From NCBI GenBank assembly GCA_963667725.2, contig CAXXHO010000003.1, forward strand, positions 736,001-800,000: a stretch of DNA of 64,000 nucleotides. The letters are read 5' to 3'. Shown in pieces: positions 12,376 to 17,015 of this stretch. Position 1 is the stretch's first letter. Every line of letters begins with the position of its first letter. Source of the DNA: Treponemataceae bacterium. GTDB lineage: Bacteria; Spirochaetota; Spirochaetia; Treponematales; Rectinemataceae. The position numbers and the translations under genes were made by a program. Below the pieces are notes generated by a model. It saw only the letters and a list, made by a program, of their open reading frames with translations, was not told where the DNA came from and made no database searches.

Positions 12376-12996
12376 ATGCTTCCCAAGGATTATCTGAAAT
12401 GGTACGCGCGCTCTCCGCTGGGGATCGGCAGCGGCTTCGCGGGGCTGGCCGCCGCTCTCGCGGGCGTCGCCGGCGGAATTCCGGCAGGCTTCGCGCTCTT
12501 GGCGGGATCGGCCATCGTCATTTCGGCCGGATTGGTCTCTCTTCTTGTCGGGGCTGGACCTAAATCAGCCATCGCCGCCAGGGAAGCGGCGCTCGGTCGC
12601 GACAGGGCGAAGAAGCTGAGCCATGCCGACGCCTCGAGGGAAAAGCTGGCGCGGATCAGGATCGCCGAGGGGCCCGCGGCCGATGCCGTCCGACTCGTCG
12701 CGCTGGCCGCGGGCGAGTATCTGGATGCCTGCAGGCGTGAAGGCAAGGACGATCCACTAGCCGACGCCGCGCTGGACGAGGCTCTCGATATCGTCGACAT
12801 TTTTCAAAAGGAAAAAGACGAAGCCGCCACCGAGAAACGCTTTGGGCTGGAGGACGCGGACCCCTTCGCGGACGCGGAAAGCCGCGTTGCCGCTGCGCTG
12901 CGCGAAAAAGCGGGGCTTCTGCGGGAGCGGCGGATTCAGATAGACGGCGGCTTACCCGCGTCCGGCCGCATGTCGGTCAGGGAGGAGATTGAATGA
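12376..12996 (+). CDS. Hypothetical membrane protein (two N-terminal TMs, helical C-terminus); first gene of the radical SAM operon
   Basis: 206 aa ORF, ATGA overlap with the next gene, promoter TTGCAC-N17-TAGAGT immediately upstream. Confidence 0.7.
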   Translation: MLPKDYLKWYARSPLGIGSGFAGLAAALAGVAGGIPAGFALLAGSAIVISAGLVSLLVGAGPKSAIAAREAALGRDRAKKLSHADASREKLARIRIAEGPAADAVRLVALAAGEYLDACRREGKDDPLADAALDEALDIVDIFQKEKDEAATEKRFGLEDADPFADAESRVAAALREKAGLLRERRIQIDGGLPASGRMSVREEIE

Positions 12997-14720
12997 AACG
13001 AACGCGTTTCGGGGCAATGCTCGCCATCGCGCTTTTCGCTCTCGTGGGCGGCCTGTCCGCCCTTTCGACATCGCTGGAGTCGGCCGACATCACGGTGGTC
13101 TTGAGGACCGACGGCAAAGCGGATCTGTACTACTGCCTCAAATGGGAAGCCTCGGGCGGCCAGATGCACGGATTCTATTTCCAGGGCGAAGCCTTCGAAC
13201 CTGTCTGGGACATGAACGGCTGCTATGCCGACCTCCCCGGCGGCCTCCGCCAGCCTCTTTCCATAAAACCGATGGGTTCGGGAAAATTCGATGTCATTCT
13301 CTCGGACGGCAAGGGCTTCTCCGGCAGCGCCTACTACTTCCTGCACTATGCGGGGGATTTCGCCCGCGCCGGCCTCATCGGCAGGACAACCAGCCAGGAG
13401 TTCGGGGATCTTCTCTACTTCGACTGGGCTCCCGTCGAGTGGGATGCGGGCATGGAATCGCGGACGGTGAGGCTCGTACTCCCCATGAAGGTGGCTGGCG
13501 AGTCGCTCACCGAAACCGAGCGTTCCGGCGTCCCTCTGAAAACCGAAAAATCGGTGAATGCCGAGAACAAGATAGATTACTACGGCTCGAAGGGCGATGA
13601 CGGCTCATATTACCTGACGCTGAGGTTTTTCCAGGAAAAGCTCGCGGCGCGGCAAACCCAGCGCCTGCGGCTGTATTTCCCCGAAGGCTATCTGCCCATG
13701 ACGGCGGCCTTCGATGAGGCGGCGGGACAGGCAGGGGCCACGGGGCAGCTTGGAGCCATGGGGGAGCCCGGCGCCAATGGGCAGCCCGGCGCCGCGGAAG
13801 GCTCGGGCGGTAACGGAGAAAGCCTGCGCGGCCTCAGGCTGCTGACGAATCCCCTCGTCGCGGTTCCGGCCTTCGCGGCGCTCATCGCGCTGGCGCTGTA
13901 CCTTTACATGCTGAACCTTCGCCGCTACGGAAAGCGCGCCGCCCTCGTGAAGGGAATCGCCTGGGCCGGCGATTCCTGGGTGCCGCCCAAGCTGTTTACC
14001 GGAACCTATCAGGTTCCGGGCAAGATAGCCGAGGATCTGCATCCCGCCGAAGTGGCGCTTCTCTTCGAGTTTCCCCTCGCCAGGGTCGTCGCCCTCATGC
14101 TCGAAGGGCTGCGAAGTCAGGGAATCATCACGATCGCTGAGGAAAATCCCTTGAGGATTTCCATCCTGAGCCGGAATGAGGCGAAGGACGAGATAGAGGA
14201 AAGCTTCCTCGCCTGCTTCGATGCCGAGGGCAGGGTCCTGTCCGGCCTGATGATGGACTTCTTCGAGGCGACGATACGCGGGCTCCAGGAAAAGCTCTGG
14301 GACTGCGACATGGAGGCGACGAAGGCTCATTACCGGGCCCTGCTGGCCGAAGCCGAGACGATGGAGTCGGAGCGAAAAAGCGGCGAAGCGCTCATGGACG
14401 AAGAACGCCGGCTCGCCTGGCGCGCCCGCAACCATTACTGGTACTACTGGCATGGCTACTGCTATGTCCATTCCCATCCCGCGCGCTTCTTGGGGCTGGG
14501 ACTTCCCGAGGCGCTCTCGACGGGCTACAGCGATTTCATGCGATCTTCGGCCTGCTTCTCCGGCTGCTTCACTCCCGGCAAGGAAGGCCAAGCGGGAGCC
14601 TGCTATTCGGCCTGCCACAACGCTTGCCATGATGCCTGCCATTCGGCCTGTCATTCAGCATGCCATTCGGCCTGCCACTCGGCATGCCATTCGGCATGCG
14701 TATCCGGAGGCGGTCATTGA
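12993..14720 (+). CDS. Signal-peptide, single-TM membrane protein (DUF2207-like N-terminus) with a C-terminal (CHxA)n Cys/His repeat tail
   Basis: 575 aa; signal peptide, beta-rich domain, Gly-X-Y linker, TM [19 protein letters not shown], tail [12 protein letters not shown](CHSA)5-CVSGGGH. Confidence 0.8.
   Translation: [575 protein letters not shown]
14601..14708 (+). repeat. 12-nt coding tandem repeat, nine CxxX units
   Basis: tgc/tgt cat/cac tcg/tca gcc/gca units with synonymous variation between copies. Confidence 0.9.
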
Positions 14721-16138: not shown

Positions 16139-16142
16139 AGCG

Positions 16143-17015
16143 ATGGACTACGAATTTTCTTCCATGAAACTGAGTCTTTCCGCAAGGCTGGCCCTCGCGG
16201 CCGGGCTTTTTTCCGTTGGAGCCCTCCTCCAGGTCCTCTTCGGCTGGGGCCTCCTGCCCGGCTTGATCGCCATTGTCCTCGGCTACATTCCCCTGCGCCT
16301 CAAGCCGATAACGAACAAGCCGGCCGACCAGGGGCTCGAGGAATGGCGTCCCGTCTCGATGGCCGAGATCGACAAGCTGGCTGATACCCTGCGCGAATCG
16401 AAGGCGATCTTCGGCAAGTCCATCGGCGGCAGCGTTCTCATGGTCATACTGGCAAGCGCCGTGGCGATCGCCGCTGGTGTTTCGCTCGCCTTCAGCCCCG
16501 ATCTGTCGCTGGTTCTGGCCGACGGACTGCTTTTCGCCGTACCCGCCATGTTTTTCGGAAGGGTGAAGGCCTTCGTGCCCCATGTCCTTTCTCTGAAAAT
16601 GCCCTGCTTCCAGGCGCTCTTTGCCGAGCGGATCCCCGAGCACGTCGTCGTCACGCCCTATCTTCGCTTCGACAAGGACAAGAATGGGGGCGACGTGCCC
16701 GAGGATATCCGCCTCATGATCGAGCCCAAGCGCAAACCCGACGATTTCGTGGGCGTTCAGGTCCAGGCGGCCATCAACAAGGGGCCGAGCGCCGAGGTGC
16801 CTTATCTCTACGCCGTTATTCTCACGAAAGGGAAGGGCGCCAGCTACCGCAGGTTCGAGGATCTGCGCGCGAGCGGCTACGAAAAAGAAGCCGGCGGCGA
16901 CGAAGCCTACGGCAGCATCGTCGTGAGGCAGGAGACTTCGGGGACGGGCTACGCCACGAAACCTTCCGACTGCGTGAGGCTGTTCAACCTGATCTGCGGA
17001 ATCCTGAAGGCTTAA
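16143..17015 (+). CDS. Hypothetical membrane protein (about 4 TMs plus a soluble C-domain); last gene of the radical SAM operon
   Basis: 290 aa ORF starting 4 nt after the radical SAM stop, GAGG SD. Confidence 0.7.
   Translation: MDYEFSSMKLSLSARLALAAGLFSVGALLQVLFGWGLLPGLIAIVLGYIPLRLKPITNKPADQGLEEWRPVSMAEIDKLADTLRESKAIFGKSIGGSVLMVILASAVAIAAGVSLAFSPDLSLVLADGLLFAVPAMFFGRVKAFVPHVLSLKMPCFQALFAERIPEHVVVTPYLRFDKDKNGGDVPEDIRLMIEPKRKPDDFVGVQVQAAINKGPSAEVPYLYAVILTKGKGASYRRFEDLRASGYEKEAGGDEAYGSIVVRQETSGTGYATKPSDCVRLFNLICGILKA

Follow-up and report, generated by a model that had tools for sequence, protein, structure and literature searches.

A conserved cysteine-histidine repeat tail on a DUF2207-like membrane protein of a spirochaete, a candidate substrate of the adjoining radical SAM/SPASM enzyme

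What does a radical S-adenosylmethionine (rSAM) enzyme with a SPASM domain act on, when its gene directly follows that of a large membrane protein ending in a cysteine-histidine repeat? This question is raised by a locus of four genes at positions 12376-17015 of the DNA analyzed here, a stretch of 64,000 nucleotides (nt) from a Treponemataceae bacterium (GenBank assembly GCA_963667725.2, contig CAXXHO010000003.1, positions 736,001 to 800,000 of the forward strand), hereafter called the window. We propose, with a probability of about 0.55, that the enzyme (gene 3) modifies the cytoplasmic tail of the membrane protein (gene 2) in place, probably by thioether cross-links. In the list of open reading frames (ORFs) the four genes are given as follows, with positions counted in the window and lengths in amino acids (aa):

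12376-12996, + strand: gene 1, 206 aa
12993-14720, + strand: gene 2, 575 aa
14717-16138, + strand: gene 3, 473 aa, TTG start (alternative ORF start at 14660)
16143-17015, + strand: gene 4, 290 aa

A preliminary description of this DNA had reported four co-oriented genes with overlapping or abutting ends, and a second reading of the ORFs and junctions in the sequence agrees with it. The stop of gene 1 and the start of gene 2 lie in a common ATGA at 12993. Gene 2 ends with cat-tga, and the TTG of gene 3 at 14717 overlaps its TGA stop (caTTGA). The TAA of gene 3 is followed by the 4-nt gap agcg and then by the ATG of gene 4 at 16143. The ORF list and scans with Pfam and NCBIfam also bear out the earlier statement that no small ORF, protease or exporter family is found between or among the four genes. 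In these scans gene 3 alone matches curated families, and genes 1, 2 and 4 match none at threshold. The single promoter that had been assigned to the four genes was not recovered. A consensus scan gave no promoter-like site in the 166-nt gap 5' of gene 1, and therefore one promoter for the whole set is an assumption. The scan returned two sites only, both within gene 3, where shuffled sequences lead one to expect 1.0 +/- 1.0; neither promoter nor terminator signals of the region rose above shuffled sequence. Small contigs, 99% alike, were seen on genes 2, 3 and 4 in run X13; its metatranscriptomic label is a guess and DNA is possibly present, and these contigs were not counted as expression.

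The C-terminus of gene 2 reads [12 protein letters not shown] (ACHS)x5 ACVSGGGH and consists of nine ACxx units and VSGGGH. It is encoded by a 12-nt tandem repeat with 8.5 copies (14598-14699). The presence of this tail, already claimed in the preliminary description, was seen again when the sequence was re-read, and as protein it is invariant in all 77 sequences compared. Relatives of gene 2 were collected by scanning one genome per species with patterns that lie outside the tail, namely QEKxWDCD and an N-terminal domain motif from the protein body. This gave 220 genomes with a relative; the best 80 loci from the scan, all with spirochaete-type labels or among such loci, are called genome loci below. 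Cultured carriers among them are Rectinema subterraneum (L070) and Gracilinema caldarium (L069). The same tail stands at the protein end in every one of the 76 genome loci with a complete gene 2. In 77/77 complete sequences (window included) there is no change of A, C, H or S within the ~28 C-terminal residues, while the overall identity of these orthologues to the window protein is only 42-96%. Among 2775 pairs, the last 40 codons have a mean identity of 0.916 at positions 1 and 2 versus 0.519 at position 3, and both TCN and AGY codons are used for the serines of the tail. Since the tail is invariant as protein while synonymous sites drift and switches between TCN and AGY occur, selection acts on the amino-acid sequence of the tail, spacers included. 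The conservation of the tail is far beyond chance and is not low-complexity noise. Judged from the alignments, the constraint on the spacer Ala and Ser is more than simple metal chelation would need. Contigs of independent DNA from two other studies (runs X4 and X6) cross the tail without insertion or deletion and with the same repeat length, and the uninterrupted run has 8-9 Cys in 151 of 156 sequences.

Several proteins with other readings of this region were set aside as likely assembly or gene-call artefacts: a fusion of gene 2 with gene 3 (P0167, 937 aa), from which the tail region is absent, and the fusion-like P0080, P0094, P0009 and P0015, in which the repeat is read in another frame. 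Several public gene calls read the tail in the other frame as a PATRPAT-type sequence running into gene 3, which in the window corresponds to 14452-14868 of the + strand.

The neighbours of gene 2 were called with hidden Markov models (HMMs) built from orthologues of genes 1, 3 and 4. Of the 80 genome loci, 74 have gene 3 immediately behind gene 2; in the other six the contig ends there, so that the count is 74/74 where there is room for it. A further 80 loci came from metagenomes (22-57% identity to P0021, GC content 32-73%); they were found via the tail motif itself and are therefore uninformative on tail conservation, but can be used for linkage. Here gene 3 is next in 72 of 80, with six loci lacking room and two true exceptions (72/74). 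An even sample of the phylum, comprising 401 genomes, has gene 2 relatives in 25. Gene 3 relatives at E <= 1e-30 occur in 29, all 25 among them. One of the four additional genomes, G127, has a weak rSAM match only (110.8 bits). In G283 a long gene 2, detected with a closer query, adjoins gene 3, and G287 has a gene 2 fragment on another small contig. Altogether 28 of the 401 genomes carry a strong or partial gene 3 orthologue; a gene 2 relative is present in 27 of the 28 and in none of the other genomes. The co-occurrence of tail and rSAM enzyme expected by the preliminary description is thus upheld both by adjacency and by the distribution among carriers. In addition, 65 of 76 orthologues have a TTG overlapping the TGA stop of gene 2. 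The last His of the tail is encoded by CAT in 66/73 sequences, compared with about half at internal His codons, which fits selection keeping the TTG start of gene 3. These sequence data support genes 2 and 3 as a conserved pair that is probably coupled in translation.

A second spirochaete clade (L081-L083, L085 and L087-L090; families f41/f55) has a gene 2 of 860-1050 aa. Its tail has ACV(C)H between three ACHS blocks and is followed by a gene 3 orthologue with 37-41% identity. Gene 3 is followed by a 422-aa protein with the end NKTTKEQW and by a membrane protein of ~180 aa with the zinc ribbon CPxCG...CPxCGG (a sub-threshold match), which replace genes 1 and 4. The results of the neighbour HMMs across clades therefore define a conserved core of gene 2 and gene 3, usually with gene 4. 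In general form the repeat of gene 2 is written (A-C-H-S/D), with the ending ACVSG..H. At E <= 0.001 the gene 2 family comprises 613 cluster representatives, of which 157 remain at E <= 1e-30. Among 25 representatives that were fetched, mostly chosen because the match reached the profile end, 21 have a period-4 Cys tail, P0128 has none and three are garbled in frame. Source and atlas labels of the family include Spirochaetota, Nitrospinota, Aminicenantota and Elusimicrobiota, and are taken as leads only.

The assignment of gene 3 as an enzyme with CxxxCxxC and a SPASM domain was confirmed by Pfam matches above cut-off to Radical_SAM (PF04055, 95.2 bits, cut-off 29.5) and SPASM (PF13186, 41.7 bits, cut-off 21.5). 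The motif CxxxCxxC (C125/C129/C132) is invariant in 64 orthologues. The SPASM region (aa 349-431) has seven conserved Cys, six of which (C363, C381, C418, C421, C427, C431) do not vary in the same set, and the seventh, C349, hardly does. SPASM is a C-terminal domain containing CX2CX5CX3C that holds two auxiliary 4Fe-4S clusters. The AlphaFold2 (AF2) model of gene 3 has a mean pLDDT score (predicted local distance difference test) of 87.4 and a predicted template modelling score of 0.87. In this model a domain resembling the recognition element (RRE) of peptides made by the ribosome and modified after translation (RiPPs) precedes the rSAM core at aa 22-94 in the beta3-alpha3 arrangement of the winged-helix RRE, with strands 34-36, 41-44 and 48-51, helices 54-64 and 77-94, and pLDDT ~90. 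Foldseek ranks SkfB, SuiB and CteB first. A second structural aligner gives Z 26.4 for SkfB and Z 26.1 for SuiB, the latter over the full length (model 24-445 against chain 2-439, also given as 21-445 against 0-439); NifB and HydE are also structural neighbours, with a lower Z of ~17. A profile of the 64 orthologues searched against the PDB finds SkfB (2.8e-25), PqqE, TigE, SuiB and CteB, and its alignments to SkfB, TigE and CteB start at profile positions 47-51, within the N-terminal domain. The RRE-like, rSAM and SPASM build of peptide maturases is thus supported for gene 3, with the RRE assigned by predicted fold.

The reaction catalyzed is less easily read. The best NCBIfam (release 20) scores are those of the haem b synthase AhbD (139.5 bits, cut-off 500) and NirJ2 (114.8 bits), and all 25 families listed are far below cut-off. 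By these cut-offs gene 3 is not a member of AhbD, NirJ, PqqE, MftC, anSME, PapB, GeoRSP, ACGX, StsB, WgkB or HxsC, and the AhbD and NirJ scores reflect the common rSAM/SPASM core. SuiB, SkfB, CteB and TigE have the same three-domain build as gene 3 with an identity of only 15-22%; they act on free precursor peptides and their reactions differ from one another, so the fold does not fix the chemistry of gene 3. The predicted complex of gene 3 with aa 495-575 of gene 2, three 4Fe-4S clusters and SAM scored, without controls, 0.17 and 0.08 (mark 0.32), which speaks neither for nor against binding.

For the tail to be a substrate it must lie on the same side of the membrane as the enzyme. The AF2 model of gene 2 (pLDDT 82.8), together with sequence features, suggests the following parts:

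12993-13064, + strand: signal peptide, aa 1-24, directly before 13065; AF2 helix 2-19, basic and then hydrophobic [25 protein letters not shown], with presumed cleavage
13065-13682, + strand: periplasmic beta-sandwich, DUF2207-N-like, aa 25-230, pLDDT above 93
13683-13850, + strand: disordered linker rich in Gly, Ala and Gln, pLDDT <50 at aa 244-282
13851-13961, + strand: single transmembrane (TM) helix, aa 287-323, then the basic stretch RRYGKR (AF2 model and sequence)
13962-14492, + strand: cytoplasmic winged-helix and helical-bundle domain, aa 324-500, invariant motif QEKxWDCDxEAT, pLDDT mostly >90
14493-14597, + strand: pre-tail segment, aa 501-535, LPxxxSxxYxxFMxSxxCFxGCF, conserved; proposed recognition ('leader-like') sequence
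14598-14720, + strand: Cys-His repeat tail, aa 536-575, and stop; 12-nt tandem repeat, proposed substrate ('core')

Because there are a signal peptide and one TM helix, and by the positive-inside rule, the C-terminus of gene 2 with its tail is predicted to be cytoplasmic, in the same compartment as the enzyme. The winged-helix and helical domain is modelled confidently at aa 335-500. Among 71 gene 2 sequences W324, W329, P332, K344, E433, W436, D437, D439 and A442 of the cytoplasmic domain are invariant, and L504, P505, Y512, F515, M516, S518, C521, G524, C525 and P528 of the pre-tail segment are nearly so. The linker holds an 18-nt tandem repeat of ~3 copies at 13737-13793 (Tandem Repeats Finder). 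A relative from a wastewater metagenome (the independent run X6) has exactly one 18-nt unit deleted at 13747; in this comparison the copy number of the linker repeat varies, and that of the tail repeat does not.

In Foldseek searches the beta-sandwich resembles the N-terminal domains of the M1 aminopeptidases ERAP1 and LTA4H and of OST ribophorin-I/Ost1 (E ~1e-6 over ~230 columns), a likeness that says nothing on the function of gene 2. The window protein has no match to Pfam DUF2207 even at E <= 10, and its match to TIGR04222 is weak (E 0.02, below cut-off). Its homologue L081 of the second clade reaches 27.6 bits for PF09972 (cut-off 24.4) and 18.1 bits for PF20990 (cut-off 33). P0008 has a precomputed PF09972 label, and DUF2207 is the name that some relatives carry in their sources. 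Genes 2 and 4 fall into unnamed or DUF2207 clusters only in the ESM Atlas. From these comparisons gene 2 would rather be a remote branch of DUF2207 than a clear member. Two distant relatives (P0021 and P0163) have the precomputed label PF27846, which is absent from the Pfam copy used, and recent Pfam may hold a family for part of the protein.

We propose, by analogy, that gene 2 contains within one protein what a RiPP precursor has: the pre-tail segment would take the place of the leader, and the repeat that of the core. Gene 3 would be translated by coupling from the stop codon of gene 2, and its RRE-like domain would bind the pre-tail segment. The enzyme would then modify the repeat units one by one in the cytoplasm by 5'-deoxyadenosyl radical chemistry, forming cross-links from Cys sulfur to carbon (thioethers) within or between adjacent 4-residue units. 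Thioethers are the likeliest chemistry because Cys is an invariant residue of donor type, SkfB and CteB are close relatives and CrpC, discussed below, offers a precedent. In thioether systems of the sactipeptide and ranthipeptide type, the enzyme joins Cys sulfur to C-alpha or to C-beta/gamma. The product would be a rigid, serially stapled Cys/His element that remains on the membrane protein. Its role may be to bind metal or redox centres or to serve as a structural rod. The period of four could allow links from i to i+3 or i+4 along a helix, giving a stapled rod, which we infer from the spacing only. In a bolder form of the proposal, the tail becomes a covalently laddered, His-lined rod of fixed length (8-9 units, each Cys stapled to the neighbouring unit), which serves for metal binding or electron relay on the cytoplasmic side of a DUF2207-type trans-envelope complex with gene 4. 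We hold this form to be speculative and improbable. If it were true, a protein-embedded RiPP would be the built-in cofactor of a membrane machine, and would give a first functional handle on the DUF2207 superfamily.

Several observations weigh against modification of the tail in place. The tail as substrate, the type of bond and the role of the product are all a step away from what is directly seen, namely conservation, linkage, enzyme architecture and a topology model. The tail is helical in the AF2 model with low confidence (pLDDT <50). Apart from one D and one N, the tail of the window lacks Asp, Asn and Thr at the acceptor positions known from ranthipeptides. The repeat number is not absolutely fixed, with tails of 3-5 Cys in the metagenome proteins P0008, P0010, P0014 and P0017, which may be real or collapsed assemblies. 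The match of gene 3 to the RRE family PqqD of Pfam is sub-threshold (15 bits against 23.4, E 0.033). The two exceptions to linkage, L160 (6004-9450) and L165 (4037-7483), belong to one low-GC lineage and have a gene 2 with full tail and no gene 3 next to it; a fusion of homocysteine S-methyltransferase (MetH-like) with MTHFR and nuo-like genes follow instead. G322, which is 94% complete, has gene 3 at a contig start (L086, 38% identity), and gene 2 was not found in this genome, the only such case among the 28 carriers. The loci are kin, and the counts given above overstate their independence. Finally, the constant spacing of the nine Cys and seven to eight His also fits a tail that binds metal or clusters.

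This last point leads to the strongest alternative, in which the tail stays unmodified and binds metal or iron-sulfur, as a Cys/His ladder, a cluster scaffold or a cluster donor. The enzyme might then assemble a metallocluster on the tail, as NifB and HydE/G do with scaffolds, draw electrons or clusters from it, or have another substrate, such as a membrane lipid or a small molecule. The near-constant number of units would suit a fixed number of sites, and the structures that resemble gene 3 include NifB and HydE. For CrpA (see below) the authors also suspect metal binding of the modified protein (PMC13692751). However, metal-binding tails usually vary in length and tolerate changes of the spacer, while in this tail Ala and Ser change no more than Cys and His do. 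Furthermore, gene 3 has an RRE-like domain, and peptide maturases rather than cofactor enzymes come out as its best matches. We therefore consider an unmodified metal tail unlikely, though it is the alternative to be taken most seriously; it is also compatible with modification, because a cross-linked tail could still bind metal through its His.

A second alternative makes the tail a true RiPP precursor: once modified, it would be cleaved from gene 2 and leave as a free Cys-rich peptide by release or export, with the large protein as carrier or leader only. This agrees with the leader-like and core-like layout of gene 2, and the tail has a weak likeness to TIGR04117, the Cys-Xaa-Xaa-Xaa repeat rSAM target (16.6 bits, E 0.006; with a cut-off of 50 it is not a member). 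But in none of the clades examined does the module include a conserved protease or exporter, and the U32 gene next to it lies on the opposite strand, with matches in 4/80 genome loci only. The 500-aa remainder of gene 2 is conserved and well folded, which would be needless for a leader, and the tail is predicted to be cytoplasmic. A released peptide is thus very doubtful.

That the overlapping C-x3-C-H units are covalent tetrapyrrole (haem-type) sites, with the enzyme maturing or attaching the cofactor to give a dense cytoplasmic haem array, is the least credible explanation: CH stands at the Cys units, C-H-S-A-C-H reads as CX3CH, a variant haem c motif, and AhbD and NirJ2 are the best NCBIfam scores, but these are far below the 500-bit cut-offs, structure and profile searches rank peptide maturases first, we know of no cytoplasmic system for haem c attachment, and one haem per 8 residues would, to our knowledge, be denser than in any known cytochrome.

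Returning to thioether modification in place, precedents on whole proteins are available. QhpC, the gamma-subunit of quinohemoprotein amine dehydrogenase, is a small exported enzyme subunit with three Cys-Asp/Glu links, which are intramolecular and made in the cytoplasm by QhpD. Unlike gene 2, QhpC has no repeat, membrane anchor or DUF2207 domain. QhpD is described as a SPASM rSAM enzyme for Cys thioethers in this protein subunit (PMC13692751, PMC10288494). CrpC installs ranthionine links on the Cys-rich, 28.8-kDa protein CrpA of Methanococcus voltae, as reported from experiments in 2026 (PMC13692751). The earlier remark that no characterized system of this type was known must therefore be qualified, since SPASM enzymes that install thioethers on whole proteins (CrpC/CrpA and QhpD/QhpC) have been characterized. 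CrpC has the RRE, rSAM and SPASM build and the seven SPASM Cys of gene 3, one iron of its AuxI cluster is proposed to bind a substrate Cys, and its gene adjoins that of a large Cys-rich protein (PMC13692751). CrpA resembles gene 2 in having its Cys in C-terminal repeats and in staying a protein after modification, but it is soluble; it has ten repeats of 17 residues, and its leader-like region is N-terminal. Gene 2 has instead a period-4 tail of 36-40 residues at the end of a 550-1050-aa membrane protein, and its proposed recognition segment is encoded just 5' of the tail. Gene 3 is not a member of the CrpC family TIGR04463 ('rSAM_vs_C_rich'; 32.5 bits, cut-off 525).

Short-period Cys repeats beside a SPASM enzyme are also known from the NCBIfam CXXX-repeat (TIGR04115/TIGR04117), ACGX-repeat (TIGR04340) and Cys-every-fifth CefB (NF038107) families, and the Cys spacing of the CXXX family, a period of 4, is that of the gene 2 tail. 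Their targets are small free peptides or proteins, unlike gene 2. Gene 3 scores 78 bits for the ACGX family TIGR04340 (cut-off 400), and the CXXX-repeat maturase TIGR04115 has no match at E <= 0.001 in the genome (cut-off 350). A literature search found no biochemical characterization of the CXXX, ACGX and CefB systems.

For the body of gene 2, the closest parallel described is SMU.243 of S. mutans, a DUF2207 protein (PF09972/PF20990) with a large extracytoplasmic N-terminal domain, a membrane anchor and an intracellular low-complexity C-terminal tail (PMC10457818). This layout of outer domain, anchor and inner tail resembles that of gene 2. The family tail is described as a Gly/Ser-rich stretch (PMC10457818), whereas that of gene 2 is an invariant Cys-His repeat; gene 2 also differs from DUF2207 proteins in having one TM helix and a soluble cytoplasmic domain. 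The DUF2207 literature searched contained nothing on a system of genes 2 and 3. No description of the module was found in the wider literature, although the supplements of PMC13692751 might list it, and two stretches of tail sequence, [15 protein letters not shown] and CHDACHSA, met accidental matches only.

Modification of proteins by rSAM/SPASM enzymes is known, and a membrane-anchored, DUF2207-like candidate substrate with an exceptionally constrained repeat is new here. RiPP chemistry of this kind on whole proteins has very few cases, QhpC and, since 2026, CrpA. If the proposal is true, it extends to the cytoplasmic tail of a membrane protein and gives the first biochemical clue to a DUF2207-type protein. 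The substrate signature is clear, a repeat of 36-40 residues that is invariant across lineages in proteins otherwise 22-60% identical. The gene 2 family is widespread and has gone unrecognized, with no threshold match in the Pfam-A copy used or in NCBIfam release 20. The module is compact, consisting of two genes and a soluble fragment, and is hence directly testable.

The preliminary description also placed the tail in a complex with the two flanking membrane proteins. This idea fares differently for the two: gene 4 is widely conserved but replaced in the second clade, and gene 1 is clade-specific. Gene 1 has a hydrophobic hairpin near the N-terminus (~aa 15-60), and its C-terminal part is helical and charged. 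It matches no Pfam or NCBIfam family at threshold, and a holin-like match is sub-threshold. Its HMM was found 5' of gene 2 in 76/80 genome loci, the four misses being loci that start inside gene 2, and the two genes overlap by 4 nt in 54 of 68 loci. The HMM gave no match in the 80 metagenome loci, where other clade-specific small genes lie upstream. On these counts gene 1 is an accessory of one spirochaete clade, outside the conserved core. In a distant subclade (a subset of L093-L148) a soluble protein of 129 aa, starting M-x-L/M-P-Y/F-G, is encoded directly 5' of gene 2, and another distant subclade has a membrane protein of ~190 aa there; neither matches Pfam.

Judged by its four hydrophobic segments (~aa 14-50 and 94-138), gene 4 is a four-helix membrane protein; its soluble C-terminal domain (aa 139-290) is conserved. 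In 114 sequences W68, P186, N212, Y221, Y223, R262, G269 and Y270 are invariant, and there is no conserved Cys or His. Its HMM follows gene 3 in 67/80 genome loci, with all misses at contig ends, and in 57/80 metagenome loci, where the other 23 are 21 contig ends and the two loci L160 and L165.

The genes around the module are the following:

8367-10934, - strand: candidate P-type ATPase, by reading of a long ORF
11103-11570, + strand: MarR-family regulator
17048-18496, - strand: gene of the U32 peptidase family (best TrhP, 281 bits, below the cut-off of 534)

These were considered as further members of the module and rejected. The U32 gene, on the opposite strand, has a match at E <= 1e-5 in only four genome loci (L001-L003 and L080), and the matches of the MarR gene, the P-type ATPase and a lipoprotein-like ORF at the same threshold are confined to the closest relatives, L001 and L002.

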